Below are positions 14,875 through 58,274 of a stretch of DNA of 64,000 nt, piece after piece. A program made the position numbers and the translations under genes. Position 1 is the stretch's first letter. The number at the start of each line of letters is the position of its first letter. Under the pieces are notes generated by a model. It saw nothing but the letters and a program-made list of their open reading frames with translations. It was not told the DNA's origin and searched no databases. The DNA comes from Escherichia coli (GTDB lineage Bacteria > Pseudomonadota > Gammaproteobacteria > Enterobacterales > Enterobacteriaceae): assembly GCA_025336685.1 (NCBI GenBank), contig GCA_025336685.1_4717.1, one strand, 5' to 3'.

Positions 14875-14894
14875 TCACCTAGGTAATGTAAGCG
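14875..14894 (-). promoter_or_regulatory. conserved motif TCACCTAGGTAATGTAAGCG (minus strand TACATTACCTAGGTGA), putative phage promoter
   Basis: One of 4-5 copies of the GGTAATATAG-type motif; about 150 nt upstream of the 13291-14724 start. Confidence 0.35.
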
Positions 14895-14932
14895 TCAAAT
14901 TTTTTCTATTCGCAACGATAAACGGCATAAAT

Positions 14933-14960
14933 CTCCCCCAACCCTTACGGGCTGAGGGAG
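14933..14960 (-). terminator. imperfect GC-rich hairpin (CTCCC..CCC-TTAC-GGG..GGGAG) flanked by CATA/TATG, downstream of the capsid-candidate gene
   Basis: Inverted repeat read directly; same architecture as the other junction hairpins. Confidence 0.4.
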
Positions 14961-15057
14961 GCTGACTTATGTATCACGGTGCCGGATGAATGTCCGCAAT
15001 GAAACCATCCGCAACGTTGTCGTCAAGAATATCATCCAACGAAGCAGCTACGGTAGT

Positions 15058-17280
15058 TCAGTTAGTCTGAACAGGCAGCTTGATGTTTTCGGTGTAGACC
15101 TTACGCAGGTTCACAACGTTAATCAGACCCAGCAGCGGGCAGTTGTTAACGAAGCGGCAGCGAGGCTGAACCATGGTTTCTTTAGAAACCTGACCGTTAC
15201 GGGTAACCTGAGCAACAGATACCAGTTCCGGTACGTACAGGAACATACCGAAGGTCAGCGGATCCGGAGAACCCTGGATACCACGAGACAGGGTCACGAA
15301 GATCTTATCACGCAGCAGAACGTTCGGGTTATCTACAACCACGAAGTTGAAGCTTACACCAACGGTACGGAAATCACCATCGGTCTGCAGGAACTGCGGG
15401 ATGTAGTTGTCAGTTGCTACCACGCAACGCGGTTTCTCATCAGCGTTGGAAGACAGCAGCTGCAGAGCTGGCTGATAACCAGACTCGGAGTACATGCGAT
15501 ATGCCATCTCACGAATCACGTTCATGATCGCAGCGGACACTTCAGCACGACGTTCTGCAGTGGTGGTGCCCTGAACAGATTTCGCCAGGTCCAGATTGAT
15601 TTCTTCGAACCACGGACGGATCAGGTAACGACCGAAACCTTCGATCTGGATGTCACCGAACTGACGGAAGCGAGAGGTCGCAACCGCTTTCAGTGCATCT
15701 TTGTAGCTGAACAGTTTCTCAACCATCAGGTTGTCGAAACGTGCGTTAGCAGCTTGGATCAGAACGTCCAGGTCAGCAGCGTTTTCTTCCCAATCCAGCG
15801 GACGAGGAATGGAGAACGGAGCCAGCAGGCCGATTGCATAACGCTCTTGCTTCATGTTGAAGTCAAGGTGTTTACCACGTTCACGACGGTTGCTGTTGTT
15901 ACGGCGAATACGCAGTTCGTAACCAACCAGTTTGAAGCTCAGGTCGTCAGCCAGGTCTTTAAATTCTTGGCTCTTACGCGGCTGTTCGATGTTGTCCTGA
16001 TCAACCAGGCGATACAGTTCAGCGTTAGCACCGTTAACACGCAGACCTGCTTTCTCTACGTTGGAAGAACCGTAAACTTCGATAGCCAGCTGAGCAGCAG
16101 ATTTCGCATCGATGATGTCCTGCAGCGCTTCGGCTTTCGCACCTTTAACGTCAACGGTGTTCTCATCAACGAAGATGGAGTGGGTGTCGAACGCCAGGGT
16201 CATTTTGCGGAAGTCGCCTTCCAGGGATTTCTGGAAACCGTTGGTAATCAGACCGGATACGTCGAACGGAACGTAAGAGGTCTTGCTGTGCTTGGCTGAT
16301 TTGATTTCCACCAGGATTTTGGTCAGCGTGATCTGAGCATCCAGCGCATCGGTGTTGTCGCTGTAACCGTTAGCCAGAATGCTATCGTCTTCAGCGATAC
16401 CGATCATGTCGATCAGTTTATCAACAGCCAGGTAAGACGTTTTGTAAGTTACGCCTTTAATCTCGATGTCGCGCGGAGCAACGATAGTTTTGTCAACGAA
16501 GTACTGCGCGTTAGCATCGTCGGCACGATAGATCGGATGCAGATCGGTCACGTCGTTGGACAGAACGTCGTTGTACATGAACGCATCCAGCAGCGGACGA
16601 CGTACCCAATCAGCCGGAGTACCGTCAGCGTTACGACGCAGGTGGTTGAACACCAGCGGACGACGGAAAGATACGTCGTAACCGATCTGGTTCGGAGCCA
16701 GAACGATGGTGTTGTACAGTTCGTTACCCATGCGGCTCAGACGAGAAGCCTTCACGTTGAACACAACGGAGTACGGCATCATGTCACGCAGTTCTTTCTG
16801 GTCGTAGGACAGCTGAACCAGTTCTTCAGATTCGCAACCGCAGGAATCAGCAGCCATCATGACGAAGTTAGAGCTGTCAACTTCACGGCCAGACGGAGTG
16901 GTGCTGATGTTCATGGAACGTGCTTGTTTAGCATATTCTACCGGGTTGCCATGAGCCAGCATGATCAGTGCTGCTGCACGAGCCTGCTGTGCGTTCATGG
17001 TGAACAGCTGTTCTTCAATACGCTGCTTCTCTTCCGGAGTGGTGGTTTCGAAGCCCAGCATGGACAGAACCGGTTCTTCTGCTTTACGGATGTCGCTGCT
17101 GAAGCTCTTAACATCCATATCGTTAACCAGTTTGTCCATGGATTTGAAATCAACCTTAGAAGCAGATTCCATAGACAGGAAGGTGTTCTCCAGACCTTTG
17201 TCTGCTGGTTTGCTACCATTAGCGGTCAGGAACTGGCGAGTGGCCGCGACCTGTTGGCTAAGAAGGGTTTTATCATTCAT
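15058..17280 (-). CDS. candidate major capsid protein (740 aa)
   Basis: ATG with AAGGA SD; codon usage sharply optimised (CTG, CGT, GGT, ACC, AAC) relative to neighbours; size fits jumbo-phage capsid proteins; N-terminus has SME|S-type motifs; function by inference only. Confidence 0.85.
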   Translation of the reverse strand: MNDKTLLSQQVAATRQFLTANGSKPADKGLENTFLSMESASKVDFKSMDKLVNDMDVKSFSSDIRKAEEPVLSMLGFETTTPEEKQRIEEQLFTMNAQQARAAALIMLAHGNPVEYAKQARSMNISTTPSGREVDSSNFVMMAADSCGCESEELVQLSYDQKELRDMMPYSVVFNVKASRLSRMGNELYNTIVLAPNQIGYDVSFRRPLVFNHLRRNADGTPADWVRRPLLDAFMYNDVLSNDVTDLHPIYRADDANAQYFVDKTIVAPRDIEIKGVTYKTSYLAVDKLIDMIGIAEDDSILANGYSDNTDALDAQITLTKILVEIKSAKHSKTSYVPFDVSGLITNGFQKSLEGDFRKMTLAFDTHSIFVDENTVDVKGAKAEALQDIIDAKSAAQLAIEVYGSSNVEKAGLRVNGANAELYRLVDQDNIEQPRKSQEFKDLADDLSFKLVGYELRIRRNNSNRRERGKHLDFNMKQERYAIGLLAPFSIPRPLDWEENAADLDVLIQAANARFDNLMVEKLFSYKDALKAVATSRFRQFGDIQIEGFGRYLIRPWFEEINLDLAKSVQGTTTAERRAEVSAAIMNVIREMAYRMYSESGYQPALQLLSSNADEKPRCVVATDNYIPQFLQTDGDFRTVGVSFNFVVVDNPNVLLRDKIFVTLSRGIQGSPDPLTFGMFLYVPELVSVAQVTRNGQVSKETMVQPRCRFVNNCPLLGLINVVNLRKVYTENIKLPVQTN

Positions 17281-17304
17281 TGAAAGTATCCTTTACAGAA
17301 TTAA

Positions 17305-17314
17305 CTTATATAAG
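17305..17314 (-). promoter_or_regulatory. palindromic CTTATATAAG box about 25 nt upstream of the capsid-candidate start, putative promoter element
   Basis: 10-bp AT-rich palindrome in the 150-nt leader of the most codon-optimised gene. Confidence 0.3.
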
Positions 17315-17429
17315 TCGGTCGATAGACCATAGCGTACACGCGTGCATGCGCCACTATAGTATCAGTAAACACTTACCGTTATTGAGGTCGTGATACAACA
17401 CTAAAAATGCCGCATAACTTTTCCCTACG

Positions 17430-17834
17430 TCACAAACGACGCAGGCGATAATGGATGGAACGATTGGTGCAATATGAACGGAACAGCGGCAATTGCGCAA
17501 CTTCCGCAAGACTCATATTAATTCGCAGGTGTTCAATAACGGCGCTGTAGTTATCAGCAATACGATCGCTCAATAACTCTTCTGCCAATAAAGGAAGACA
17601 ATCGACAACAATCGCGATCACATCCTCATTAACATAACGCACCCGAACACTCAACGGACGTTTGTCTGGGTTGTAAGTTGGATCCGCCAAACGACGTTCA
17701 ATATCACGCGGATAGCTCGTCAGTAAATGGTAATAACCATTGTCATAACGATTGATGTACTCACACAGCACACCAACGTTCTTCTCTGGCGGTAAACCTG
17801 TTTCGTCATAGTGGATACGCAAACATACCACCAA
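17430..17834 (-). CDS. hypothetical protein, C-terminal ORF of a possibly frameshifted gene (134 aa)
   Basis: ORF-track start is TTG; overlaps 17806-18051 in another frame; no in-frame ATG near the 5' end. Confidence 0.45.
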   Translation of the reverse strand: MVVCLRIHYDETGLPPEKNVGVLCEYINRYDNGYYHLLTSYPRDIERRLADPTYNPDKRPLSVRVRYVNEDVIAIVVDCLPLLAEELLSDRIADNYSAVIEHLRINMSLAEVAQLPLFRSYCTNRSIHYRLRRL

Positions 17835-18051: not shown

Positions 18052-18090
18052 TATGATTACCTCTTTGCAAGTATCGAAAGGATTGAGTCG

Positions 18091-19701: not shown

Positions 19702-19726
19702 ACGCAAAAAAAAAGATTGTACGGTT

Positions 19727-19773: not shown

Positions 19774-20100
19774 TTAACTTATTGTCATAAATTCGCTTGG
19801 TGAGAATTTCCAACCATTCTCATTGAGAAGTGTGTTGAGTTTCGCTGCGACAATAAGCCATGCATGCATAGCCGTTATGTCGTATTGGCGATTCACTCGA
19901 CGTTGGTTTTCGATATTGATTTGCTCCTGTTCAGTGATGTTTGGATAGAGTGAGATAGCGCTGGGCTTACCCAGCGCGCTAGCCATCACCGCAGTACATT
20001 CACTGATAATGTTGTTTAAGTGGTAGTTGTATACCGTTCCGCGCATGACGCGATGACGGCATTCGATAATAGCGTCGTAAATGATTTCTCGAGTAATCAT
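19774..20100 (-). CDS. hypothetical protein (108 aa)
   Basis: ATG at 20100. Confidence 0.6.
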   Translation of the reverse strand: MITREIIYDAIIECRHRVMRGTVYNYHLNNIISECTAVMASALGKPSAISLYPNITEQEQINIENQRRVNRQYDITAMHAWLIVAAKLNTLLNENGWKFSPSEFMTIS

Positions 20101-20106
20101 GATAAC

Positions 20107-20508
20107 TTAAAACATGCGTTCGTTTTTAGCACGGGCAGCCATTACCAGATCGTAGATACCTGCGGTTCGTAAACATTCGTCGTAGTAACGATGTGCGCCT
20201 TCCTCAGCCATCCATGATAACCCACGGCTATCCGCAACGATAACCAATTTGTTATTGTTGAATGCACACACCACACGGTAAGTCGCGTTGTTATTCGGAT
20301 CGCGAGTGATCAGCTCATAGACACCGTTAACAGGTTTACTGAATTCGCCATTTAACGGGACGAGTTCGGTAGTACCTTCAGCAAACGTTACGTTGATCGG
20401 AGACGGATCTTTAGCGATAACAGTATATTCCACATTGTGTTCTTTACTGGTCATAATGCCGAAGTAAGAACTGATAGGGGAACGTGGTACACTAAGAATA
20501 TTAAACAT
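20107..20508 (-). CDS. hypothetical protein (133 aa)
   Basis: ATG at 20508 with AGAGGA SD. Confidence 0.7.
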   Translation of the reverse strand: MFNILSVPRSPISSYFGIMTSKEHNVEYTVIAKDPSPINVTFAEGTTELVPLNGEFSKPVNGVYELITRDPNNNATYRVVCAFNNNKLVIVADSRGLSWMAEEGAHRYYDECLRTAGIYDLVMAARAKNERMF

Positions 20509-20578
20509 GAGAGTTGTCCTCTTAATTGGATTTAGATTGTTGGATATGTAATCGGGAAATGAAAACGCTGTTTCGGTT

Positions 20579-21148
20579 TTAGACGATATGTGACCAGGTG
20601 GTAAGCACGCCGCTTGCGAATTCGAGCTTAAGACGTTTACCGATAAGTTGTTGTTGAATCATCTTTTCAGTGATACGTCGATCATGCTGAACAGCTTTAT
20701 CAAACGCTTCTTTCGCTTCGGCTTGGTAGAAGTTCGTTTCTTCGTTGTCGTCGATATCTTCGAGAGCGTCATCGTCAACATCAGCAAGCTTTACTCGACC
20801 GTTTTCATCAGGTTGTTCTGCAGGTTCGTTGTCATAAGGCGTGTCTTTTGTTGGTGCGACACGATGATGCAACTCGACCTGTGTTAACATGATCTCCATC
20901 TCACCATCGATAGGGATGATTTCATCGGCGCAGCCGTTTTCGGTCAGCTCTCGACTTTCTAGCAATGTCGTGGTAACAGAGAACACCTCTTCAACAGGAA
21001 CCTCATCATCGTCGATAGTGTTAACCGTATTGCTGGTAACTTCGGCAACGACCATCAAATCAAATGCGTGAGGATCGCCTGGCATTTTGATTCCTGGGAG
21101 TTTGTTGAGATACCAAGGATCGAGAATCATGATTTCTGGATTAAACAT
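20579..21148 (-). CDS. hypothetical acidic protein (189 aa)
   Basis: ATG at 21148; D/E-rich. Confidence 0.7.
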   Translation of the reverse strand: MFNPEIMILDPWYLNKLPGIKMPGDPHAFDLMVVAEVTSNTVNTIDDDEVPVEEVFSVTTTLLESRELTENGCADEIIPIDGEMEIMLTQVELHHRVAPTKDTPYDNEPAEQPDENGRVKLADVDDDALEDIDDNEETNFYQAEAKEAFDKAVQHDRRITEKMIQQQLIGKRLKLEFASGVLTTWSHIV

Positions 21149-21215
21149 CGTTTTACCTTTCTATGTTAGGTGGATTGCGGATAGAAGAATCAATGCATAG
21201 ATTGATCGTTCTTTG

Positions 21216-22118
21216 TTAGAAATTATTGCCGAACCGGTTATGGTTGTATGGTTGGTAGTGTCCGTAATTGCCTGGGAAGCCACCATACGTCGTAGGCTCC
21301 GGTTTAGGGACTTCCATAATCGGATTTTTAGAATTGATCGCCATCACGTAAAGGGTTACGGGTGATGCTGCGTGGCCCATTTCGACGACCACACGGCGGA
21401 TATAATCAATGTATGCTGTTATTGCAGGCGTCAGTTTGTCTCCTTCGGTAGTTATAACGGTGCCGTCGGAAAGAATCTCACGAACCGCGCACCATTTACC
21501 AAGATGAACTCCTTGCTGCGGCTTTACTCCAGCAGAGATAGAGAGATAGGTATCGTACGTCGTTTGATGATACGGATGACTATAAATAGATTCCGCTTTG
21601 TTTTCGTCTTTCCCTAAGTACTCGCCTTGCTTAGGAGTATGAGTTGATATCATATCGGTATTTTCCACGAATGTCTTTCCTTCGAGTTGTTTGATTAATC
21701 GTTTAACCGATTCAGTTATGTTGTTGTGTCTAGGGATCAGCTTTAAGTAAACAGTCGGTAACTGGATTGTTGACCCATCACTACTGCGCGGATAAGATAA
21801 TTTGTAAAACTGTTCAAAAATCCGCCGTAACGCTTCGTTGTCTGAAGTTGCCAATTTAACATAGGAGCATCGTCCTTTAGCATTGGGATTGTAGAGAAGG
21901 AGAATAACGTCTTCGTCAGTACGTGTATCCTGAGGATGACAAGCGATGTAGTGAATGGGAATAGCCGTATCTTTTTCGTCTCCCGGTTTGATAGACAATG
22001 AAAAATCATGAGTTTCTTTTAACGTTCGTAACGTGCAGGATGCGTCGTCACTATTAAGTAAGAACACACCGAAACGCACGCTTTCGTATGCTGACGGGTC
22101 GCGTATTAATAAGGTCAT
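21216..22118 (-). CDS. hypothetical protein, tandem paralog family with HP.H.TYD.YL motif (about 300 aa)
   Basis: ORF-track start 22196 is TTG; ATG at 22118 has AGGAG SD at 7 nt; shares HPYHQTTYDTYLSISAGV with 22204-22977. Confidence 0.8.
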   Translation of the reverse strand: MTLLIRDPSAYESVRFGVFLLNSDDASCTLRTLKETHDFSLSIKPGDEKDTAIPIHYIACHPQDTRTDEDVILLLYNPNAKGRCSYVKLATSDNEALRRIFEQFYKLSYPRSSDGSTIQLPTVYLKLIPRHNNITESVKRLIKQLEGKTFVENTDMISTHTPKQGEYLGKDENKAESIYSHPYHQTTYDTYLSISAGVKPQQGVHLGKWCAVREILSDGTVITTEGDKLTPAITAYIDYIRRVVVEMGHAASPVTLYVMAINSKNPIMEVPKPEPTTYGGFPGNYGHYQPYNHNRFGNNF

Positions 22119-22203
22119 GTTCGGCTCCTTGATTACGATAAGGATGATTGCGGTTTTGTGGTGCTGGTAGGGCCCTAAACAAAGGAACCCTACCAATATT
22201 AGG

Positions 22204-22977
22204 TTATTCAGGATCGGCGTAGAAATGGTGAGGATAGCCGGAGTACGATCCTGCGTTACCGGCTATGGATTCTTTCTGGGAATCGACGACGAGCGCATAG
22301 AACTGTCGGGAATTTGTTAGCGTTGAGAAATAAGCGGAAAGGACTTTTTCATTCAACGCATCGCAAGGTAGACAGGTGCGACCGCAAAACGTAACGATAC
22401 GGCCGTCAGGATAGATCTCACGAATCATTCTCCACTCACCGATATCCACTGGTGATGGTGCTGCTACACCACCTGTTATCGTTAAGTAACGATCGTACGT
22501 GGTATGGCATTCAGGATGAATATAGATCGGCTTGTTCGTTTCGACAGGTTCCGAAGTGTCTCGACGACTAAGGAGTTCAACGACTTCAAGATAAATCGTT
22601 GGTAGATCGCGGAGAATACCGGTGTTACGACGTTTCTTTGTGATTCGCGGACGAATCTCGTTAAGAGCGTATTCGAGCTTACGTTCAGCTTCGTACGCAT
22701 CGAGTTTTATTAGGTGGCCCGGTTCATCGGAATGATCCTGAGTTATGTAAACGAAATACGTGTTGTCTTTTGCAGCGCGAAAGATTCGAGCGACCTTAAA
22801 TGTTTCTACAGTGCGATAACCAAGGCGCGATTGATTTTCCACAGGAGAAAATATCCAATGTCGTCCTTCGTCCGCCCCAACAATTTCGTTGAAACTATCC
22901 GTTTGTTCTGGGACCTGGTAGTCAGCCATTAATGTATCAAGAGCGTCATCGGCCAGTTTGGTGTAAATATCTGTCAT
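22204..22977 (-). CDS. hypothetical protein, tandem paralog of 21216-22118 (257 aa)
   Basis: ATG at 22977 with GAGGA SD; HPECHTTYDRYLTITGGV motif. Confidence 0.8.
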   Translation of the reverse strand: MTDIYTKLADDALDTLMADYQVPEQTDSFNEIVGADEGRHWIFSPVENQSRLGYRTVETFKVARIFRAAKDNTYFVYITQDHSDEPGHLIKLDAYEAERKLEYALNEIRPRITKKRRNTGILRDLPTIYLEVVELLSRRDTSEPVETNKPIYIHPECHTTYDRYLTITGGVAAPSPVDIGEWRMIREIYPDGRIVTFCGRTCLPCDALNEKVLSAYFSTLTNSRQFYALVVDSQKESIAGNAGSYSGYPHHFYADPE

Positions 22978-23032
22978 GTTTGTATCCTCGGTTGTTAAGA
23001 GAAATTTACAATGATAACAGTAACCGTTGCTA

Positions 23033-23054
23033 TCACCTAGGTAATATAGTCGCG
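23033..23054 (-). promoter_or_regulatory. conserved motif TCACCTAGGTAATATAGTCGCG (minus strand CTATATTACCTAGGTGA), putative phage early-type promoter
   Basis: Exact TATATTAC on the minus strand about 60 nt upstream of the 22204-22977 start; motif recurs at 14875, 58090, 58255. Confidence 0.4.
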
Positions 23055-23091
23055 AAATAAACTGGAGTAATACGCTTAAGACAGTATAGAA

Positions 23092-23123
23092 CCCTCTCCC
23101 TTCCCTTACGGGTTGGGAGAGGG
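23092..23123 (-). terminator. junction hairpin CCCTCTCCC-TT-CCC-TTAC-GGG-TTG-GGAGAGGG
   Basis: Perfect inverted repeat immediately after the stop of 23128-24495; inverse orientation of the 37018 copy. Confidence 0.5.
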
Positions 23124-23127
23124 AATA

Positions 23128-24495
23128 TTAAACGGTTGGGCGAACGGTATTGTCTTTTTCTGGTGCGATCCATAACGTGACCGTACCATGACATGTCCAT
23201 TGTGGTTCACGTACAGAAGAACCTGCCATCGTCACAGCGCAATCGGTACGCATAATGACCCCGTATGCTTCGCAGAGATTGTTATCCTGCATCCACACAA
23301 CTTTAGCAGGCATGCCGGGATACAACAAGTCCATGTTTGCGTATTCCCACACCAACTGCATCGTTCTACCACGTAATCCGGCAGTATTGCTTAATTCACG
23401 CCATCGGTTATCGGTTACGCGTCCCATCCCTTTCGCCACCTTCACGTTATCGCTACGCTCTTCAGTTACGTACTCGCTAACGTTTACAGTACGGCTGATT
23501 ATTGTATCGCCCCCTTTTGATAATGTCATCCCCTGACTCATCTGACTTGCCGAAACAAAACGCCCACCCGCATTACCTAACAACGAAGCCGCGTTATTGA
23601 CGTCGCTTACCGACGCCCCTCTCGTACATGCAATTTCCACGTATTTGTCACGATTGATCCAGGTCTTGTCCATGCCTGGAAACATATCGGCAGGATAGTT
23701 GTAAAAGATCGCCGTGCGTCGACCGTCAGAGAAACGGGTTTCGTCGTAGAGAGGATAAATATACAGATACGGGGATTGATAATAACAACCGACATCTGCT
23801 GAATAAATACCGACCTGGTTCTGGATTTTATCTACAAGATCCATTGCGTTGGTACCGTGCGGAAGAATAAGCAACTTGAATGGGTTGTCGTTATTCGGTG
23901 CAACAATATCCACACCCTGCATTTTGAATCCGGTGTCAGCTTCAACCGCAGAAAGTATCTTGCTGAATTCAAGGCGCAACACATCCAGCACTTTCGATCC
24001 GGTATAGTTCTCACCGGTTTCCGATTGCATGAAGCTTTCAAGAACAGGATCGAACAGTTGAAATTGAAGGTCGACCATTTGTTCGTAGTCTTTCTTCGAA
24101 GAATCGGTTGCGGTACGTTCGTCGGTAGCAGACATACGACTGTCTACGGTTGTTAAACAGACCGCCCGGTAGACATAAGCCTGTGCGGCATCGTCTACGG
24201 TTTGGCGTTGTCCGCGCATCAGGCTGTACGCCTGCACGATGATGCGCATTTTAAGTTGTTGTTGGTACGGTAGAATGTATTTTCCGTAACTGCCTGGTGG
24301 GAACTTTACAGAGATATAAAGTTCATCCCCTGCGTTACGTTCATAGTCTCGATACGTGTGGACTTGAGTCACTAAAGGAACAGACACCGTCATTGACGGC
24401 GTGATTAGTTCCGCGGTGACTTTATACGCAACAGCAACAGCTTCCTGCGCAAACGTACCGATATACCGTCCTAACGGCGTCTGTTTGTAATCCAT
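23128..24495 (-). CDS. hypothetical protein (455 aa)
   Basis: ATG at 24495; 2-nt gap to upstream gene. Confidence 0.85.
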   Translation of the reverse strand: MDYKQTPLGRYIGTFAQEAVAVAYKVTAELITPSMTVSVPLVTQVHTYRDYERNAGDELYISVKFPPGSYGKYILPYQQQLKMRIIVQAYSLMRGQRQTVDDAAQAYVYRAVCLTTVDSRMSATDERTATDSSKKDYEQMVDLQFQLFDPVLESFMQSETGENYTGSKVLDVLRLEFSKILSAVEADTGFKMQGVDIVAPNNDNPFKLLILPHGTNAMDLVDKIQNQVGIYSADVGCYYQSPYLYIYPLYDETRFSDGRRTAIFYNYPADMFPGMDKTWINRDKYVEIACTRGASVSDVNNAASLLGNAGGRFVSASQMSQGMTLSKGGDTIISRTVNVSEYVTEERSDNVKVAKGMGRVTDNRWRELSNTAGLRGRTMQLVWEYANMDLLYPGMPAKVVWMQDNNLCEAYGVIMRTDCAVTMAGSSVREPQWTCHGTVTLWIAPEKDNTVRPTV

Positions 24496-24497
24496 GT

Positions 24498-25103
24498 TTA
24501 ACGACCCCGTTGCTGTTGTTGAATGATGAATTCTTCGATCTTCGTGCCACGGAATTCGCTGTGACGAACTGCTTGCAGCTGTTCTTCAACGGTTGGACCA
24601 GCGTGGAGACCACCACGACGTGCGCGATTGATGCCAATACGACGACGTTGACCGATTTCACGCAAACGTGAAGATAATCCGCTCATTTCGGTTGGGTCTT
24701 TAATACGACCGCGTGCAACGTTCCACAGACCACCCATGAACTCTTCGAGAATACGGCTGGCTTCGAGAGACGGTACGCGTGCGTTAGGGTCGTTTTCGAG
24801 ATTGTATTTAACGTATTCCGTGTGTTCCAGAAGTAACATGAACATCTTCATGGCGTTCACGTCGGGATTTGCAATACGCATAGGGACACCACGAGAATGT
24901 TTTTCAGCAGCCTGCGGTACCGTGAGTTGTGCGGGCACCTCTTCGTTCATGGTCATATCGTCGATTTCTGCAACCCCTGAAGAGTAGACACCGCTGACCT
25001 CATTGGTGTAGTTATCCACCATGAATTTACGGGGAATCCAGAATTCGAATTTACGTTCAAATAGACGTTTGGTTGGAGTATCTTTAACGTGTTGTAGACT
25101 CAT
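24498..25103 (-). CDS. hypothetical protein (201 aa)
   Basis: ATG at 25103 in ATGA overlap with upstream stop. Confidence 0.8.
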   Translation of the reverse strand: MSLQHVKDTPTKRLFERKFEFWIPRKFMVDNYTNEVSGVYSSGVAEIDDMTMNEEVPAQLTVPQAAEKHSRGVPMRIANPDVNAMKMFMLLLEHTEYVKYNLENDPNARVPSLEASRILEEFMGGLWNVARGRIKDPTEMSGLSSRLREIGQRRRIGINRARRGGLHAGPTVEEQLQAVRHSEFRGTKIEEFIIQQQQRGR

Positions 25104-27968: not shown

Positions 27969-28344
27969 CGGTGTCGTCCTCGCTAATTTCACCATATCCT
28001 TGTTGTCGATATCCGGTATAATGAATCAGACTGCTCTGTAGAAGCTCTTTAACGAGCCCTAGACGCGTTTTATCTGCTTCATTGGACGTTTCCATTAATG
28101 TTTCTATTTCGTTGTTTAAAACAGCGTATAGCGCTTCTAACGGCAATCCTTGGATGATTGGTTTGCTGGTGCCTTCTGGCAATGCCGCAACAGGAATCTG
28201 CACGACGGTTTCACGCGCGGTATGCGGGTTAATACGACAAATGTACATACCTGGTACTGAATGTCGCGGACATACCGCTACCAAGCATGTCTGTTGTTGC
28301 GCACCGTTAAGTGCGAGGGGTAGAAATTTTGCTTCACGTGTCAT
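27961..28344 (-). CDS. hypothetical protein (127 aa)
   Basis: ATG at 28344 with AGGAA SD. Confidence 0.7.
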   Translation of the reverse strand: MTREAKFLPLALNGAQQQTCLVAVCPRHSVPGMYICRINPHTARETVVQIPVAALPEGTSKPIIQGLPLEALYAVLNNEIETLMETSNEADKTRLGLVKELLQSSLIHYTGYRQQGYGEISEDDTDA

Positions 28345-28395
28345 CGCAGATTCCTGTTTGAAAGATAAGATATCACATGATGGTCGACAGCATAA

Positions 28396-28417
28396 AGCCC
28401 ACCCCGAAGGGCGGGCT
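28396..28417 (-). terminator. intrinsic-terminator-like hairpin (GCCCACCC-CGAA-GGGCGGGC) followed on the minus strand by UUUAUGCUG
   Basis: Stem-loop directly after stop of 28433-31798; U-rich tract after stem on the coding strand. Confidence 0.55.
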
Positions 28418-28432
28418 GTTTATGCGTACGGG

Positions 28433-48171: not shown

Positions 48172-50967
48172 TTAAGCTAATTTACCGAAACCGGCTTTCT
48201 GCAGTTTCTCGTTGATGATTTTCGCTTCAGCGAAGACGTAATCACGATACGCAGTGACTAACCCATCCACCCGTGAACGCAAGGCTTCTTCGAAGCTATA
48301 CCACGCAGCGATTTCACGAATCTGTGCGTTGATATAATCAACGGTTGAGCGAAGCTCGGTTGCATTTTCTTGCGGAATGGCTTTCACCTGGCGAGCAACG
48401 TCATTTAAACGACGGAACTGTGTTTCGATTTCTTTAAACTTACTGTCGGCAAGTTTGCTGAATTCGTCACCGGAACGGGTGAATAACAGATAGCTGTTGC
48501 CGTCAAGCGCTGTCGCTAACTGCTGAAGAACGTTGGTATCCGGATACACAGGAGTACCGCTTTGCAGTACTTTCTCACCGAATTCCGCGAAGTCCTTCGG
48601 CGGTAAGTGCGCAGACGTTGTTAACTCGTTGAAACGGAAAGTCAGCGAATTATCATACAGCATCCGGTACGCTTCCATACCCTGTTGCATGGTACCGGCC
48701 AGGTTAGCCAGACGCGGAGCAATCTCACCCTCTTTAGCGCGTTTCTGGTCTTCTAACGCCCCTTCGAGTTCTTTACACTGGTCGTTCAGATACACGATAC
48801 GATCGGGACGCAGACGACGCATCTCACGAAGAATAGTATCCAGCTTACCTTCCTGGAAATAACCCAACGTTAAAGACGTACACGCTTGCTGAAGACGATC
48901 GAACACCGGCAAGGTCACCATCTCTTTACGGATACCATCAACAATCGCAGAAACAGCCGAAAGTTTCTGTTCGGTGGTTAATGGGGCGTCAGAGACCGAC
49001 TTGCTGGGCGCGCCAACAACGTTACGCATTGCGTCGGTATCCTCGGTTTTATCAACCTCTTTACGAACATTCTCATCAGGAACATAAACGTTCGCGTTAC
49101 GTTTCGCCTGCTTGATGGCGTCGTTGGCTGCTTTTTCGGTGGCCGCTACGCTATCGGCACGTTTCTTCAAGAGTTCGATAATCCAGAGCAACAGACGACG
49201 AATCGCGGTATAGGCCGTCGTGATGATGACACCGATAACAGCCATCTTCATGATACCGAACGATTCCATGGTCGGCTCTAACGCCTGGTCTGGCATATAC
49301 CGTTCACGCAGTTCCAGATAGATCTGCTCATCTGGTTTGCTGATCTCACCACGATGCGAAGTCCGATAGATGGCTTCGTCAATCTCAACAAGATCTTTGC
49401 GTGCCTGACGGTCTGTTTCGGTCAGATAAGCGCAGCCGGATACATCGTCTTCAAAACTTTCGAACTTGAAAAAGTCATTGACATCGATCTTGATCTTCTT
49501 CGCTTCATTATCGACATCAATAAAATCTTTTTTCTGTGCTTGATATTCCGCTTTGATGTCGTTCACCGGCTTCAACGCACGTTCTTTTAATGCCTGTACG
49601 ATCTGTTTCCAGTCAGCGTCGCGCTCAAGAACAAGGAAGTAATTCTTGAGTTCAAAAGCACGGTAACGCGCAACGAGTTGTTCTACCTGAACATGAGCGA
49701 GTTGCACGTCCATCAGCCAACGCGACATTGCCGAGATCAAACGACTATAAGCAAGTAATGTTTGATACGTCAGCTTCATGTGCTTTTCGTACAGCTCAAT
49801 ATCGCCGTCTTGAATATCAGCCGTCGGGTTCATTTCCTTCGTTGCTTTGAAGATTTGTTCGGCTTCATTTAAAGTCTGTTCGAATTTGACTTCATTAAAC
49901 GCGTCGAACGGCTCAGCCAACACCGCCATTCGATCGCGAAGTTCACGAACCCAGGCGTCTTTATTGTTGCGAATAGCTGCGTCATCGTGAAGTTCGGTTT
50001 GATGTTTCTGTACCCATTCTTCGACGATATCAGCGGCGGCAACAATTCCGGTACCATCGGAAACTAACGGAACAACTCCAGCAAGTACGCCTACACATGC
50101 CGGAGTTTTCCAGTAATCGTTCAAAGCGTTTCTGAATTCAACGATGGATTGTACGTTTGGTACCATATCCAAAAACGTACTGCCGTTACGGCTCATTGTC
50201 GTTACGATATCAGCGAATTCCTTCTGCTTGGCGGTAACAAAAGGAACCAGGACCATAAGCCATTCAGCAACCGATTTCGCTTTTTCTTTCAGGTTCTTGT
50301 CTGCGATTTCTTTAAGACTAATCGCACCACCATAACCTGCAAGCTCTTTATATACGTCGCTAAGTGTCATCTGTTTATCCAACATTTCTTTGAAACGTGG
50401 ATAATCAGCACCTAACGCATCGATAATATCGTTGATTACGTCGTCGGTTGTCGCGATAAACTTCTTCGTATCGACGTTTGAATATTTCCAGACGTACCGT
50501 ACGGCTTTCTTGATTCCTGCAAAGATAAACGCCCAAATACGCTTGATGAGTTCCCAGACTTTCTTCGCGCCATCGACAAACAGTTTAGAGACCTTGGCAA
50601 CGAATCCTTCCTGTACCAACTCAACGCCGTTACGTGATGGGATTTCGGTGAAGAAAGCATCCGGTAGTTGTTTCGGGAACGCGTCGCCAAGACGCATACG
50701 CAGTTCGGGTACATCAGCACGAGAAATACCCCGTGTTACTAACTGTTCGTGAAGACGAACGTTTTCTTCGCCAGAGGTCACGAATTGGTTAACATCGAAG
50801 GAAACCATCGCTTCCTGATCTTCGGTGGTGACGACGCTTGAACCATCGCTGGTTTGGATGTCTTCGTCAGGGAACGCCATGAGCATACCGTGACGCATTT
50901 CAACCACTCCGTAATCGGTTGCTAAACCGAATTCGTTGTGGTCAGGGGTAATAACTGGGATACTCAT
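48172..50967 (-). CDS. large hypothetical virion-associated protein (931 aa)
   Basis: ATG at 50967 in ATGA overlap; N-terminal VELVQEGFVAK...KKVWELIKRIW segment resembles the head-internal paralog motif. Confidence 0.9.
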   Translation of the reverse strand: MSIPVITPDHNEFGLATDYGVVEMRHGMLMAFPDEDIQTSDGSSVVTTEDQEAMVSFDVNQFVTSGEENVRLHEQLVTRGISRADVPELRMRLGDAFPKQLPDAFFTEIPSRNGVELVQEGFVAKVSKLFVDGAKKVWELIKRIWAFIFAGIKKAVRYVWKYSNVDTKKFIATTDDVINDIIDALGADYPRFKEMLDKQMTLSDVYKELAGYGGAISLKEIADKNLKEKAKSVAEWLMVLVPFVTAKQKEFADIVTTMSRNGSTFLDMVPNVQSIVEFRNALNDYWKTPACVGVLAGVVPLVSDGTGIVAAADIVEEWVQKHQTELHDDAAIRNNKDAWVRELRDRMAVLAEPFDAFNEVKFEQTLNEAEQIFKATKEMNPTADIQDGDIELYEKHMKLTYQTLLAYSRLISAMSRWLMDVQLAHVQVEQLVARYRAFELKNYFLVLERDADWKQIVQALKERALKPVNDIKAEYQAQKKDFIDVDNEAKKIKIDVNDFFKFESFEDDVSGCAYLTETDRQARKDLVEIDEAIYRTSHRGEISKPDEQIYLELRERYMPDQALEPTMESFGIMKMAVIGVIITTAYTAIRRLLLWIIELLKKRADSVAATEKAANDAIKQAKRNANVYVPDENVRKEVDKTEDTDAMRNVVGAPSKSVSDAPLTTEQKLSAVSAIVDGIRKEMVTLPVFDRLQQACTSLTLGYFQEGKLDTILREMRRLRPDRIVYLNDQCKELEGALEDQKRAKEGEIAPRLANLAGTMQQGMEAYRMLYDNSLTFRFNELTTSAHLPPKDFAEFGEKVLQSGTPVYPDTNVLQQLATALDGNSYLLFTRSGDEFSKLADSKFKEIETQFRRLNDVARQVKAIPQENATELRSTVDYINAQIREIAAWYSFEEALRSRVDGLVTAYRDYVFAEAKIINEKLQKAGFGKLA

Positions 50968-54809: not shown

Positions 54810-54827
54810 TGGAGGTTTTATGTGTTT

Positions 54828-55277
54828 TTAATTATTGTTGATGGGGTTATCGTCCGGCTTATATTCGATGCCGTAGGCGACGTAACGGTCTGTCGTATGG
54901 ACGACAAGCGAGATGGGGAAATCATAATGCGTGGTTTTGTCTCGGACGAGCTGAGTAAAGAGATCCATATAACGTATTAAGTCTTCACTGGTGTAATCAG
55001 AAGGGAAGAAGACGTCGATGGTTATTGAATCTTCATAGAGGCGTATAACCAACTTATCCAGAAGGTCGGCATATTGGTTAGCCGGGGTGACGTCCAGCTC
55101 ACAGATATCACGATCTCCTTCGTCTCGTGATACCCACATCATGGTATCCTGTAATGAGGTTTCAAGGATCTCGAAAATGCATTTTGCTGTAAGTTTTAGT
55201 TTATTTGTTACGTCATGGTTAGGTGAATAATGGTCACGGATGTTTTTCACTGCGTCTTTGATAGAGAAAGTCATCAT
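54828..55277 (-). CDS. small hypothetical protein, paralog of 55288-55797 (149 aa)
   Basis: ATG with AGGAG SD; shares ILETSLQD / LLESSLQD segment with next gene. Confidence 0.75.
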   Translation of the reverse strand: MMTFSIKDAVKNIRDHYSPNHDVTNKLKLTAKCIFEILETSLQDTMMWVSRDEGDRDICELDVTPANQYADLLDKLVIRLYEDSITIDVFFPSDYTSEDLIRYMDLFTQLVRDKTTHYDFPISLVVHTTDRYVAYGIEYKPDDNPINNN

Positions 55278-55287
55278 TGATGCTCCT

Positions 55288-55797
55288 TCAAATGAAATTA
55301 ATACGTGCGGCTGTCGAAACGAGTTCGCTTGTAAAGCAATGCTTACCGTCGGTATTTACCGTGTGAGTAAGTTTACAAGCCTTAGTGGTTGGGTTAGCGC
55401 CAATGACCAGGACGGTCGTCATATCGAACAGTTCCACACGTTGGAGAAATGCCGTATCGGCTACCTTCTGTAAACCGGTTGCTTCAAAATCGATGTGGTC
55501 GTTAAGCGATACCAATTGGATTTCAATACGTTCTTTGAAAAGTTTAAACGTTACTGAAAACCGATGAGGTTCGGTATTAAACCATAAAGGTCCGCGTTGG
55601 AAGTGCTGATATGCTTCATTCGTGTTGTTCTCGAAAACCCAGTAGTCGTGGACAAGAGAAGCGTCTTGTAACGAGGATTCCAGGAGATCAAACGTCTTAT
55701 TTATTGCTTTCTCAAGCATAGGTGCTAGTGAACCCGGGTATCCAGCAAATGCTGTTTCGGCAATCGATTTTATTGATACGATGTTATTCTGGTTCAT
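55288..55797 (-). CDS. small hypothetical protein, paralog of 54828-55277 (about 169 aa)
   Basis: ORF-track start is TTG; ATG at 55797 has AAGGAA SD at 8 nt. Confidence 0.75.
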   Translation of the reverse strand: MNQNNIVSIKSIAETAFAGYPGSLAPMLEKAINKTFDLLESSLQDASLVHDYWVFENNTNEAYQHFQRGPLWFNTEPHRFSVTFKLFKERIEIQLVSLNDHIDFEATGLQKVADTAFLQRVELFDMTTVLVIGANPTTKACKLTHTVNTDGKHCFTSELVSTAARINFI

Positions 55798-55801
55798 TTC
55801 T

Positions 55802-56281
55802 TTATTCCTTGTTGGATTCTTCAATGTGCTTGGTGTCGTAGGACAGATGCTGAATTAATTTTCGAGGTTCGATGAATATACGACATGTGATAAACACATC
55901 AGGATCGTATTGTTCCACGCAACGTCCGAAGGCTCGTTTTGCGGACTGACGCATCAAGGCTAATTCCTGATCGTTCATCTCATCATCAAATTCGATGTGT
56001 ATCGTGATTTTATCGGGAAATAAATAGATAGAGTAATCGCTACCGATATCACCGTCGTCAAAACGATAATCGTTGTGGTAATGGTGGAGTTTACCTTCGT
56101 GTATCGTCTGGTACCACCCGACGACACTATCAAGACCCATACCCAGGCGTCCGAATGCTTGGTTAATAATATCCTCGACGACGGATGCGGGCGTGGGACC
56201 ATGGAATAAACGATCTAAGCGCTTTTTCATTGATTTGTCGGTTTTCACATTCATTGTTTCTTTTCCTGTTATAATCGGCAT
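55802..56281 (-). CDS. small hypothetical protein (159 aa)
   Basis: ATG at 56281 lies 4 nt after the hairpin whose 3' arm (GGGGAAGGG) would be its SD; alternative ATG 27 nt downstream. Confidence 0.7.
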   Translation of the reverse strand: MPIITGKETMNVKTDKSMKKRLDRLFHGPTPASVVEDIINQAFGRLGMGLDSVVGWYQTIHEGKLHHYHNDYRFDDGDIGSDYSIYLFPDKITIHIEFDDEMNDQELALMRQSAKRAFGRCVEQYDPDVFITCRIFIEPRKLIQHLSYDTKHIEESNKE

Positions 56282-56284
56282 ATA

Positions 56285-56317
56285 GCCCTTCCCCGGCCTT
56301 GATGGCTAGGGAAGGGT
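56285..56317 (-). terminator. junction hairpin (CCCTTCCCC...GGGGAAGGG) abutting the start of 55802-56281
   Basis: Inverted repeat; flanked by CATATAG and GTATG; may occlude the RBS of the downstream gene. Confidence 0.4.
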
Positions 56318-56474
56318 ATGTTTACGTGTAATTACTCTGACGTAAGCGTCTTTATGCGTGTCGAAAAGTCTGTTGACGTTAGATTTGAATGAGTATTCTG
56401 CCGTCATTATTCTACCTTAATGGTTTAACCGACACGTGTCCCCACTTAACAAGGGACACGATATCGTTGATTAA

Positions 56475-56969
56475 TTATTCTTCTGTGTTTTCATTGTCAG
56501 GATCGTAGTGGAATTCGAACAACCCTGAACCGTCATGTCCGTTGATTGTGAGTATAACAGGCATATCGAATCCTCGGACGCGAGAATGAAAACACTGGGC
56601 TAATTTTAGTTTGGCATATGCCGCTATTTCATTGACGGCAATACACGACTCACCTGTTATACTGAGTATAACGTCGATACTAACAATGTTGTCGTGCAAC
56701 GCAAAACGCCAACGATCGATACGAGTATTATCTTTAGCGGGTGTCTCGTTGACGAGATAGACTTTATCGTCAACTGACAAAGCAGGGCTCCAGCAACGTT
56801 CGTTTATTAAATTCGCCTGGAGTTTTAGTACCGTCTGATCGATAATATCCCAACACGCAACCAGTGTGGTGTCGGGCACTGAACAGAGAAGGGCGAGCAC
56901 TTTATCCTTTATTTTAAGTGCTTCCGCTGAGCGTCCGCAAATACCATGCATTTCAACCTTCTTATCCAT
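56475..56969 (-). CDS. small hypothetical protein (about 164 aa)
   Basis: ORF-track start is GTG; ATG at 56969 preceded by AGAGGTGA. Confidence 0.75.
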   Translation of the reverse strand: MDKKVEMHGICGRSAEALKIKDKVLALLCSVPDTTLVACWDIIDQTVLKLQANLINERCWSPALSVDDKVYLVNETPAKDNTRIDRWRFALHDNIVSIDVILSITGESCIAVNEIAAYAKLKLAQCFHSRVRGFDMPVILTINGHDGSGLFEFHYDPDNENTEE

Positions 56970-57012
56970 ATTCACCTCTTTCTTAATCTAAATGTTAGTT
57001 GGGGTGGGATGC

Positions 57013-57615
57013 TTACATGCTTTCTAGCATATTGACGATCATGGAACCCATACCGAAACTCGGTCTCTCGCCAATGTACTCAGCAAGCTGACGATGAACG
57101 TCTTTTGGATTCCCTTCTTCACCGTCGGCGTCGATGTAAACCGAAAAAGAAAATGACTCGCAATCCACGCTGATAACCAGACGACGCTCATTGCGTTCCT
57201 TGAGTGTGTCGACAATAGCTGCTTTCAGTACTGCGATCGCGTTCATCGCGTGCAAGATATCCCCATCGGGTTTCGGCAGATCGATCTTTTCTTTCAGATC
57301 GATATTGATGTTGGTTACAATTGGATTGAGGTCGACCTTGACATAATCGTTAGGGTACATGCGAATAATCGCACGATCGATATCTGAACCGTAAAAGTCA
57401 ACACGTGGCTTTAACACTTCTTTGTTTGGATCCATGTTTTCATCCATACCCGCCTGTAGAAAGCGTTCTACGTTATCCAATTCACGATAGATTGCTGCTT
57501 CGATTTCTTTCAGATAGTTGGCTGCGGTTTCATGTTCTTTACGCAGCTCGTCTTTAAGGAGCTGTACGGTGGTTTCACTGGAACGAATACTGTTTGCGAA
57601 TTGGGTAATTGACAT
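57013..57615 (-). CDS. hypothetical protein (about 200 aa)
   Basis: ORF-track start is TTG; ATG at 57615 has AAGGAA SD at 7 nt. Confidence 0.75.
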   Translation of the reverse strand: MSITQFANSIRSSETTVQLLKDELRKEHETAANYLKEIEAAIYRELDNVERFLQAGMDENMDPNKEVLKPRVDFYGSDIDRAIIRMYPNDYVKVDLNPIVTNINIDLKEKIDLPKPDGDILHAMNAIAVLKAAIVDTLKERNERRLVISVDCESFSFSVYIDADGEEGNPKDVHRQLAEYIGERPSFGMGSMIVNMLESM

Positions 57616-57668
57616 ATCGAATTCCTTAAATTCTCTTGAGTTCAATTAATGATGAAAAGCTGTAAAAA

Positions 57669-57686
57669 GGTGGGGCGAACCCCACC
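57669..57686 (-). terminator. rho-independent terminator: GGTGGGG-CGAA-CCCCACC followed by U5 on the minus strand
   Basis: Perfect 7-bp GC stem with tetraloop, flanked by A5 on the plus strand; sits 25 nt after the stop of 57712-58134. Confidence 0.7.
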
Positions 57687-57711
57687 AAAACGTCAGACAC
57701 ACGCAGGAAAA

Positions 57712-58134
57712 TTAATTCAGTGACGTGTACAACGCATAACGACTGTAGATCTCAACCGCCGGTCCGTTATGCGTTAACAGACCATCTCGGTTGTAGTATT
57801 GGAAAAATGAATAACGTTTGTCGAAGTGATAAACGAAAGCAATGTCTTTGTCAAGACCTGTGATGCGCGGTCTGTTTTTATCTAGCAATGCTTTGACTTT
57901 TAACAGTGTTGCCGCACGTGCTTTAACATTAGGGATTAATCCATCACAGTCGATATAAACCGTGTAACCTGTTTCAGATGTTGCGACGGTTGTATTGCGA
58001 TTGACGCGGAAGATTTTTGTTTTGTATGTATCATCTTCAAGAATTGGGTTTTGTTTTTCGTATTTTCGTTTACGCAGAAATTCTACAACGGTAATATAGT
58101 TAGCGGTGATATGTCCGGTTATAGCTTGTAACAT
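57712..58134 (-). CDS. small hypothetical protein (140 aa)
   Basis: ATG with AGAGGA SD; no internal Met; contains a coding-embedded copy of the GGTAATATAG motif at 58090-58105. Confidence 0.75.
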   Translation of the reverse strand: MLQAITGHITANYITVVEFLRKRKYEKQNPILEDDTYKTKIFRVNRNTTVATSETGYTVYIDCDGLIPNVKARAATLLKVKALLDKNRPRITGLDKDIAFVYHFDKRYSFFQYYNRDGLLTHNGPAVEIYSRYALYTSLN

Positions 58135-58201
58135 CTTGACATCCTCTTATATTGGATTGATTGCAGTTATCTTAAATAGGCGATAAGATATCTTGCTCTT
58201 A

Positions 58202-58274
58202 TCACCTAGGTTGCGTTTTGTTAATAACAAAACGCATCGCCTTAGTGACCTATGTCACTAAGGTAATATAGCCG
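58202..58274 (-). promoter_or_regulatory. composite regulatory region: TCACCTAGGT half-motif, perfect 25-bp palindrome, 10-bp hairpin, then full GTCACTAAGGTAATATAGCCG motif
   Basis: Palindrome TGCGTTTTGTTAA-T-AACAAAACGCA at 58212-58236 and inverted repeat CCTTAGTGAC/GTCACTAAGG at 58240-58263, both read directly; TATATTAC on the minus strand. Confidence 0.4.

Follow-up and report, generated by a model that had tools for sequence, protein, structure and literature searches.

We have identified three ~40-bp minus-strand elements, P1, P2 and P3, within a 64,000-nucleotide stretch of DNA (hereafter the window) that are very probably early promoters of a Goslar-like jumbo phage, of the same class as the early promoters of phiKZ and read by the virion polymerase. 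Sequence comparison gives 89-95% identity to Escherichia phage Goslar (Chimalliviridae) along the whole window, and on this basis the DNA is that of a Goslar-like, nucleus-forming jumbo phage of the Chimalliviridae. The type of signal is already known from the phiKZ family; what is new is its mapping in the Goslar lineage. A search of the accessible literature found no published account of a Goslar promoter, and the word ‘promoter’ is absent from the Goslar RNA-seq paper.

An extended element underlies three of five motif copies

The sequence-only reading of this DNA had listed five motif strings, all of which stand at the positions it gave: long copies TCACCTAGGTAATGTAAGCG from 14875, TCACCTAGGTAATATAGTCGCG from 23033 and TCACTAAGGTAATATAGCCG from 58255, and shorter copies GGTAATATAG at 58090-58099 and TCACCTAGG at 58202. 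That the five are equivalent holds for the long copies alone. The copy at 58090 is a chance match, for which Goslar reads TATATCAC, one base different, and we reject it as an intragenic promoter. The ‘half copy’ CCTAGGTGA (58202-58210) is likewise rejected, being a displaced ancestral start region that forms the downstream flank of a 53-nt insertion (Table 1).

Within the window, the 10-mer GGTAATATAG occurs seven times with at most one mismatch against 2.2 expected, a count reached in 0/100 shuffles, and the 17-mer CTATATTACCTAGGTGA occurs three times with at most three mismatches against 0.04 expected, always on the minus strand. By itself, the 8-mer TATATTAC shows no enrichment (three observed, 1.9 expected; 31 of 100 shuffles reach three), and the signal therefore resides in the extended motif; indeed, the core at site 14875 is TACATTAC instead of TATATTAC. 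A chance recurrence, or a functionless remnant of duplicated DNA, could draw on this lack of enrichment and on the one exact intragenic 10-mer copy that is indeed fortuitous. However, the extended motif lies far beyond chance, the sequences flanking it are unrelated from site to site and the sites fall at early block boundaries, so that this reading is already refuted and retains next to no credibility.

Around each long copy, the element takes the minus-strand form tAat..A......tTTCACGgC-TAYATTAC-CTnnGT-GA. A matrix derived from these ~40 bp detects three window sites; in the Goslar genome (237 kb) it detects 14, against ~0 expected by chance in random sequences. All 17 lie on the minus strand, each ahead of a minus-strand gene, the Goslar sites being 25-152 nt upstream of a start codon. 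The genome-wide search for strand bias and upstream placement that the sequence-only reading had put forward, run here in Goslar, thus returned 14 sites co-oriented with the downstream gene and none elsewhere. Its placing of the long copies ‘60-160 nt’ upstream of minus-strand ORFs is borne out by 152, 57 and 122 nt from predicted start site to ATG.

The 14-site matrix is over-fitted and weaker promoters could therefore escape it. No score between 8 and 30 bits was obtained in the window or Goslar, and for this reason the regions upstream of Goslar genes with small early-signal rises were inspected by eye; no motif was seen upstream of gp183, gp156, gp169 or Goslar_00199, where terminator hairpins are present. 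An IMG/VR scan with the exact 19-mer gave 18 matches, of which three Goslar-like contigs account for 16. The remaining two, identical single matches in contigs without the GTGA flank, were taken as chance.

The TAYATTAC core is found at 3/3 window sites and 13/14 Goslar sites, the remaining Goslar site reading TACATAAC. Six bases past the core, the predicted +1 is a G at 17/17 sites, as it is ahead of the chimallin gene in five genera; this agrees with the published rule for phiKZ and phiR1-37, in which the start site lies 6 nt beyond the consensus (PMC5312081). The exact start nucleotides at 14876, 23034 and 58256 are accordingly predictions by homology.

Table 1 Predicted promoters, terminators and early units, and associated features of the window
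Feature	Position	Strand	Description	Goslar counterpart
Early promoter P1 (-38..+2)	14875-14914	minus	core TACATTAC at 14883-14890; predicted +1, G at 14876; matrix 44 bits	43249-43290, identical sequence
Early promoter P2	23033-23072	minus	core TATATTAC at 23041-23048; predicted +1, G at 23034	49715-49756
Early promoter P3	58255-58294	minus	core TATATTAC at 58263-58270; predicted +1, G at 58256	86688-86729
phiKZ-type terminator T1	14922-14960	minus	G+C hairpin, -24.7 kcal/mol, then TTTATGCCGT / TATGCCGT; ends 7 nt upstream of P1	
phiKZ-type terminator T2	23081-23123	minus	hairpin, -24.9 kcal/mol, then TATACTGT; ends 8 nt upstream of P2	
phiKZ-type terminator T3	58304-58352	minus	hairpin, -28.2 kcal/mol, then TATGCTGT; ends 9 nt upstream of P3	
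Predicted early unit 1	8517-14876	minus	begins at P1; ORFs 13291-14724, 11455-13251, 8861-11419, 8517-8798	gp040-gp037
Predicted early unit 2	19774-23034	minus	begins at P2 with ORF 22204-22977, then 21216-22118, then gp046-gp044 homologues	gp047-gp044
Predicted early unit 3	54828-58256	minus	begins at P3 with ORF 57712-58134, then small ORFs; homologues partly diverged	gp075-gp070
Intragenic TATATTAC copy	58088-58105	minus	no TTTCAC or GTGA flank; <6 bits in matrix scan	
53-nt insertion relative to Goslar	58206-58258	minus	directly after +2 of P3; two perfect palindromes (alignment, inverted repeats)	
RNA polymerase beta-like subunit gene	59642-60943	minus	phrog_2962, E = 6e-106	gp078

Early gene blocks of Goslar open at the element

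Our strongest evidence is the published, gene-level RNA-seq of Goslar, a relative 89-95% identical to the window phage. In it, ChmA knockdown halts infection at the vesicle stage, whose transcription the authors ascribe to the injected virion polymerase. All ten early gene blocks in Goslar open at one of the 14 motif sites (P = 4.8e-15 for random placement covering all 10 block starts), and the remaining four sites coincide with a signal rise within a block. At every one of the 14, the log2FC of the downstream gene exceeds that of its upstream neighbour. The Goslar counterparts of P1, P2 and P3 each have a late gene directly upstream and an early gene downstream: gp040 (log2FC ~+0.9) follows the major capsid gene gp041 (~-4.0) at P1, gp047/gp046 (+0.8/+1.1) follow gp048 (-3.2) at P2 and gp075 (+1.1) follows gp076 (-4.5 to -6.1) at P3. 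The same knockdown data extend across the units, with gp040-gp037 all at +0.7 to +1.2, gp047-gp044 early and gp075-gp070 all at ~+1.0 to +1.3.

Within the units, ORF 11455-13251 is polymerase-like and matches phrog_2943. ORFs 22204-22977 and 21216-22118 form a paralogous pair without known relatives; for the 300-aa gene behind P2, no relative was found in 50,697 phage genomes and no match in Pfam or PHROG.

The match of ORF 59642-60943 to phrog_2962, an RNA polymerase beta subunit family, shows that a multisubunit polymerase is encoded by the phage itself. The Goslar orthologue of this ORF is a late gene (log2FC -4.3 to -5.6 in the ChmA-knockdown RNA-seq), which fits an enzyme packaged in the virion, and in the Goslar study a GFP-tagged virion polymerase subunit moves along with the injected DNA. 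P1-P3 are most likely read by the phage RNA polymerase injected with the DNA. Gene-level RNA-seq alone does not discriminate between the two phage polymerases, and the subunits of the second, non-virion enzyme are themselves early products; the sites might then be middle-class promoters of that polymerase. We consider this highly improbable, as the blocks behind the sites are fully expressed in an infection arrested before the nucleus forms, a stage that the authors credit to the virion polymerase. Moreover, published phiKZ middle and late motifs differ, having a weak AT-rich or TACT element at ~-22 to -24 and TATG at the start, and the core at the window sites fits the early class.

Under the virion-polymerase model, the multisubunit enzyme, co-injected with the DNA, would recognize the ~40-bp minus-strand element, in which A's at -34 and -29, TTTCAC at -23 to -18, TAYATTAC at -14 to -7 and the T at -5 are conserved, and would initiate six bases past the core, where the G is invariant. 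A terminator comprising a hairpin and TTATGCYGT, 7-9 nt upstream of each promoter, would stop late transcription arriving from the structural genes; each site would therefore constitute a late-to-early boundary that opens an early block. These companion elements share with the phiKZ intrinsic terminator motif, BCCYCCCCHWWDGGGRRGGBYTTATKYYGT (PMC10914365), a C-rich/G-rich stem and the TTATGCYGT tail, and their function in Goslar-like phages is suggested by sequence together with the late-to-early switch across the hairpin. T1 was missed by a canonical T-run terminator scan.

Relationship to known early promoters

The early promoters of phiKZ were reportedly described by Ceyssens et al. in 2014. 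Later refinements are those of Wicke et al. 2021 (PMC8244752) and Putzeys et al. 2024 (PMC10914365). The core TATATTAC, which the sequence-only reading had named for phiKZ, does appear in print (PMC7058600 Table 2), alongside the early consensuses of N1M2, TTTCARRYAKATATTATYWAAGTGWA, and 201phi2-1, ..TATATTACDWHDGTG. With the core in print, flanks that match relatives and Goslar early blocks that begin at the sites, its interpretation as a phiKZ-like early promoter is supported.

The likeness to phiKZ comprises the identical core near -10, a T/A-rich element upstream, a predicted start 6 nt past the core and a location ahead of early operons, that of the chimallin gene included; alignment of the window sites with the promoter of phiKZ gp54 extends over 40 bp. 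In contrast, the Goslar lineage has its own flanks, TTTCACGGC upstream and CYTnnGTGA downstream, 14 sites per 237 kb in Goslar compared with 28-32 in phiKZ, and E. coli as host. The leaders behind P1 and P3 are also long (152 and 122 nt) relative to the 31-40 nt typical of phiKZ, which counts against a phiKZ-type reading.

The layout of a TTAWT/A-run, TTTCA plus 4 nt, (T)ATATTA(C/T) plus 4 nt and GTG is common to the element described here and to the predicted early promoters of 201phi2-1, OBP, EL and N1M2 (PMC7058600 Table 2). In 201phi2-1, OBP, N1M2 and the window motif, TTTCA stands four bases before the core and GTG four bases after it, the TTTCA-to-core spacing in the window being that of N1M2 and OBP. 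The motifs of 201phi2-1, OBP, EL and N1M2 differ at degenerate positions and were found by over-representation alone, whereas the element described here has gene-level RNA-seq support in Goslar. The early promoter of the Bacillus jumbo phage AR9, ATATTAT-(6N)-G+1, printed as AAATATATATTAT-(6N)-G+1 and assigned to a virion-packaged multisubunit polymerase (PMC5312081), shares ATATTA(T/C), six bases and a G, which in the window is at the predicted +1; AR9, however, has no phage nucleus, its DNA contains uracil and the upstream part of its promoter is a plain AT run instead of TTTCAC.

In five genera, represented by Goslar, phiKZ, Eowyn, RAY and PhiPA3, the chimallin gene is likewise preceded by the element, and an alignment of eight sequences contains ten invariant positions. 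That these positions, including the A's at -34 and -29, are shared from Pseudomonas to E. coli phages points to an ancient mode of promoter recognition by the virion polymerase, held under tight constraint.

This conservation also bears on whether host sigma-70 drives early transcription from the sites, as it does in phage T4, with TATATT serving as the -10 and, 16 nt before it, a TTAAT-like box acting as a weak -35. Such promoters would start at roughly the same position; P3 passes a lenient sigma-70 scan (TTAACG-16-TATATT, 9/12) and TTAATC or TTAATA occurs at that distance in several Goslar sites. Yet P1 and P2 give no match to TTGACA and TATAAT hexamers with a 16-18 nt spacer, the lone P3 match is at shuffle frequency and the strongest conservation lies outside the sigma-70 hexamers, at A-29, TTTCAC in the would-be spacer, C-7, T-5 and G+1. 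The element is also kept in phages of Pseudomonas, Erwinia and Klebsiella, and early transcription in phiKZ and AR9 is published to proceed without host polymerase. Use of the host enzyme is therefore very unlikely.

An operator for a DNA-binding regulator might be supposed from the near-perfect palindrome TCACCTAGGTGA, the palindromes CCTAGG and TCACCTAGGTaA at P1 and P2, and a 10-bp inverted repeat overlapping -8 to +2 at P3. Nevertheless, the palindrome is not kept among the 14 Goslar sites (e.g. TTAAGTGA, TTACGTGA and CTTTGTGG), conservation extends asymmetrically over 40 bp and every site has a single orientation relative to its gene, leaving the operator with scarcely any likelihood. A plus-strand SP6/T7-like promoter (TAGGT..ATATAG) was rejected because the flanking genes and early blocks have minus-strand orientation and there is no sign of a single-subunit polymerase.

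Implications of the early-promoter map

A sequence-level early-promoter map is thereby available for the Goslar lineage, which serves as the E. coli model of nucleus formation by phages. Consisting of a ~40-bp consensus with 14 sites in Goslar and three in the window, this map accounts for every early gene block in the published Goslar RNA-seq. The map can be used for early-expression cassettes, as already made with the phiKZ consensus promoter, for the correction of annotation, e.g. Goslar_00047, and for the choice of templates in virion polymerase work. It leaves the current understanding of Chimalliviridae unchanged.

Leader hairpins and the insertion at P3

An Rfam scan of the whole window gave no match. 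A hairpin anchored at +1 is present in 8/14 Goslar leaders compared with ~16% of controls (P = 7e-4). Such +1 hairpins also occur in the chimallin leaders of phiKZ, RAY and Goslar, with unrelated sequences, and at one site in a third Goslar-like genome the hairpin is kept despite a wholly different leader sequence. We tentatively raise the possibility, itself rather doubtful, that a stem-loop exactly at +1 is a selected feature of early-vesicle messages, for instance as protection of the 5' end or an aid to export.

The 53-nt insertion is common to a third Goslar-like genome, and no second copy was found in the window or Goslar. With its double palindrome it shifts the ancestral +1 hairpin of P3 ~50 nt downstream, which could alter the behaviour of the promoter or the message; the 86-nt leader carrying the insertion folds with z = -7.1.

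Early promoters of the phiKZ type

The three minus-strand motif sites P1–P3 are supported as early promoters of the phiKZ type, a kind already known, in a Goslar-like jumbo phage; as to the exact start nucleotide and the polymerase that reads them, we infer both. Matrix specificity, published consensuses and the starts of early gene blocks in Escherichia phage vB_EcoM_Goslar all agree with the early-promoter interpretation put forward by the sequence-only reading, whose quoted strings were each found in place. Goslar is a nucleus-forming jumbo phage of the Chimalliviridae, genus Goslarvirus. The whole window runs collinear to 28.4-92.4 kb of Goslar, with an identity of 89-95% (95% over 22000-30000 and 92% over 57000-59000), and its minus strand carries most of the ORFs. 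The Goslar chimallin (ChmA) shares only ~23% identity with its closest counterpart among the other phages searched, and Goslar is thus an isolated lineage. IMG/VR holds at least two more Goslar-like genomes, IMGVR_UViG_3300011560_000001 (237,533 bp) and IMGVR_UViG_3300045988_173921 (182,865 bp), which we examined at promoter sites only; the former, a different phage, is 95-97% identical to the window across the overlap.

Features of the window, with expression of the Goslar orthologues (log2FC, chimallin knockdown versus control)
Feature	Position	Strand	Remarks
P1	14875-14914	minus	downstream gp040 +0.9; upstream gp041 (major capsid) -4.0
P2	23033-23072	minus	downstream gp047 / gp046 +0.8 / +1.1; upstream gp048 -3.2
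P3	58255-58294	minus	downstream gp075 +1.1; upstream gp076 -4.5 to -6.1
ORF behind P1	13291-14724	minus
ORF behind P3	57712-58134	minus
Gene A, behind P2	22204-22977	minus	257 aa
Gene B, behind P2	21216-22118		300 aa
Major head protein gene	15058-17280
RNA polymerase beta-like subunit gene	59642-60943		phrog_2962 match
Hairpin + TATRCYGT	14922-14960	minus
Hairpin + TATRCYGT	23081-23123	minus
Hairpin + TATRCYGT	28387-28420	minus
Hairpin + TATRCYGT	58304-58352	minus
Hairpin + TATRCYGT	58807-58850	minus
Insertion relative to Goslar	58206-58258

Anatomy and occurrence of the element

With up to one mismatch, GGTAATATAG occurs seven times in the window against 2.2 expected, and the 17-mer CTATATTACCTAGGTGA, with up to three mismatches, three times against 0.04, always on the minus strand. 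Since the 17-mer is enriched while the bare 8-mer core TATATTAC is not (3 versus 1.9 expected in the window), the signal is a longer element and not the core. Aligning the three window sites with Goslar sites sharing the core yielded an element of ~40 bp, read on the minus strand as tAat (-35 to -32), A-29, tTTcAcG (-23 to -17), cTAYATTAC (-15 to -7), cTa.gT (-6 to -1), G+1 and A+2. The 14 Goslar sites agree without exception at ten positions (A-34, A-29, T-14, A-13, A-11, T-10, A-8, C-7, T-5 and G+1).

The resulting matrix is over-fitted, defining a sharp class from which weak variants may escape; it finds 14 matches in Goslar (237 kb) and exactly three in the window. The range from 8 to 30 bits is empty of scores, and random sequences yield ~0 matches. 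All 17 matches lie on the minus strand. The sequence-only reading had proposed a genome-wide look at strand bias and position, and both were borne out, each of the 14 Goslar sites standing 25-152 nt ahead of the start codon of a minus-strand gene. A host sigma-70 promoter is a poorly supported alternative: P3 passes a lenient scan, but it is the sole site to do so, at the frequency seen in shuffled sequence, and the most strongly conserved bases fall outside the sigma-70 hexamers. An operator was also considered and rejected, as the CCTAGG symmetry varies among sites.

Two further copies had been listed among five by the sequence-only reading, of which the three long ones stand. The copy at 58090 was rejected as a promoter: it lacks the TTTCAC and GTGA flanks, Goslar has TATATCAC there, and its presence within coding sequence is due to chance. 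An indel accounts for the "half copy" at 58202, which is the ancestral start region of P3, pushed downstream. Here the window carries 53 nt that Goslar lacks, immediately after +2 of P3 and bounded by an imperfect repeat (CCTTAGTGA / CCTAGGTGA); the insertion recurs, with one substitution, in IMG/VR contig UViG_3300011560_000001, and no further copies were found in the window or Goslar. Within the insertion lie two perfect palindromes, CCTTAGTGAC/GTCACTAAGG, overlapping -8 to +2 of P3, and TGCGTTTTGTTA/TAACAAAACGCA, and the resulting 86-nt leader has a folding z of -7.1.

Comparison with published promoters

The printed phiKZ early consensus is TATATTAC (PMC7058600, Table 2), the same core that the sequence-only reading had named. 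The consensuses of 201phi2-1, TTAWTAVAA_HYWTTTRARR_BTATATTACDWHDGTG, and of OBP and N1M2, ..TTTCARRYAKATATTATYWAAGTGWA (PMC7058600, Table 2), comprise the same parts as the window element, with equal TTTCA-core-GTG spacing. A review of jumbo-phage polymerases ascribes to every such phage a conserved AT-rich motif centred near -10 ahead of its early operons, and notes that wherever tested this turned out to be the early promoter (PMC7598289). The AR9 early promoter reads AAATATATATTAT-(6N)-G+1, and transcription of phiKZ and phiR1-37 starts 6 nt past the consensus (PMC5312081); applying this 6-nt rule places +1 at the last G of GTG (14876, 23034 and 58256), and a G occupies the predicted +1 at all 17 window and Goslar sites. 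In a direct check, the chimallin genes of phiKZ, Klebsiella phage Eowyn, Erwinia phage RAY and PhiPA3 were each found to be preceded by an A-run and a TTTNA-like box, then by TATATTAC (TATATCAC in PhiPA3) with a G six bases on. Aligned with the window sites and the Goslar chimallin upstream region, these four leave 10 invariant columns, both far-upstream A's among them.

Early expression in Goslar

Goslar RNA has been sequenced from control cells and from cells in which knockdown of chimallin translation holds infection at the early vesicle stage, and the authors regard the injected virion polymerase as the source of the transcripts of that stage (Armbruster et al., bioRxiv 10.1101/2023.09.20.558163). 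In the gene-level log2FC values of their Supplementary Table 2, early genes range from ~0 to +1.3 and late genes fall below -3. By our own reading of block boundaries in that table, early genes form ten blocks, each opening with one of the 14 predicted sites (P = 4.8e-15 for 14 random sites among 249 gene junctions covering all ten block starts); at the other four the signal rises within a block. The log2FC is higher downstream than in the upstream neighbour gene at 14 of 14 sites. Chance recurrence is excluded by the agreement with block starts together with the 17-mer enrichment and matrix specificity.

Gene-level data leave some room for P1–P3 being read by the phage's non-virion polymerase instead of the virion one, the multisubunit enzyme injected with phage DNA; against this, the core is of the early class, unlike published middle and late motifs, and the blocks are already expressed before a nucleus exists. 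The word "promoter" is absent from the RNA-seq paper (bioRxiv 10.1101/2023.09.20.558163), the literature library searched yielded no description of any Goslar promoter, and the Goslar GenBank record annotates terminators and no promoters. A few plus-strand Goslar genes set within minus-strand early blocks, at 134413-134640 (gp145), 155797-156150 (gp172) and 181901-182743, score as early with no upstream motif, which could reflect unstranded read counting or another type of promoter.

Terminators ahead of the promoters

A strong hairpin lies 7-9 nt upstream of each of P1–P3, followed by TATGCCGT, TATACTGT or TATGCTGT; hairpins and tails resemble the phiKZ terminator motif ..GGGRRGGBYTTATKYYGT (PMC10914365). 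A scan for canonical T-run terminators (14700-15000, 22950-23150 and 58100-58400) did not call the three hairpins there. P1–P3 are the three Goslar-type sites set within runs of late structural genes, and the terminator placed immediately before every one of them would suit a role in halting late read-through. Goslar has ~25 such terminator-like hairpins, distributed over both strands; some of those between convergent genes show hairpin and TTATG whichever way they are read and may thus terminate bidirectionally.

Leaders and variable early genes

Of the 14 predicted Goslar early leaders, 8 open with a hairpin anchored at the start (+1 or +2), compared with ~16% of controls, whether genomic or shuffled (P = 7e-4), and phiKZ, RAY and Goslar show a start-anchored hairpin in their chimallin leaders too. 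One orthologous leader from a third Goslar-like genome is unrelated in sequence and still forms a +1 hairpin.

This phage and Goslar do not carry the same set of genes behind P2: Goslar lacks ~1.7 kb just behind the promoter (window 21249-22972). Genes A and B are paralogous (28% identity, E = 5e-12) and are a variable accessory pair in the early operon; neither matches Pfam or PHROG, and tblastn with gene B against 50,697 phage genomes found nothing. In Goslar, this promoter and ribosome-binding site are followed by just a 25-aa fusion of the gene B N- and C-termini. The annotation of Goslar_00047 (49584-49772) is probably wrong, since its start at 49772 lies within the TTATGC tail of a terminator and the ORF runs across the early promoter; the real start is likely an in-frame ATG at 49661, which has GAGGA ahead of it and gives a 25-codon remnant ORF. 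In the early unit behind P3, window 54823-55786 has no megablast match in Goslar; the small early genes there are diverged or replaced, as is common among early accessory genes.
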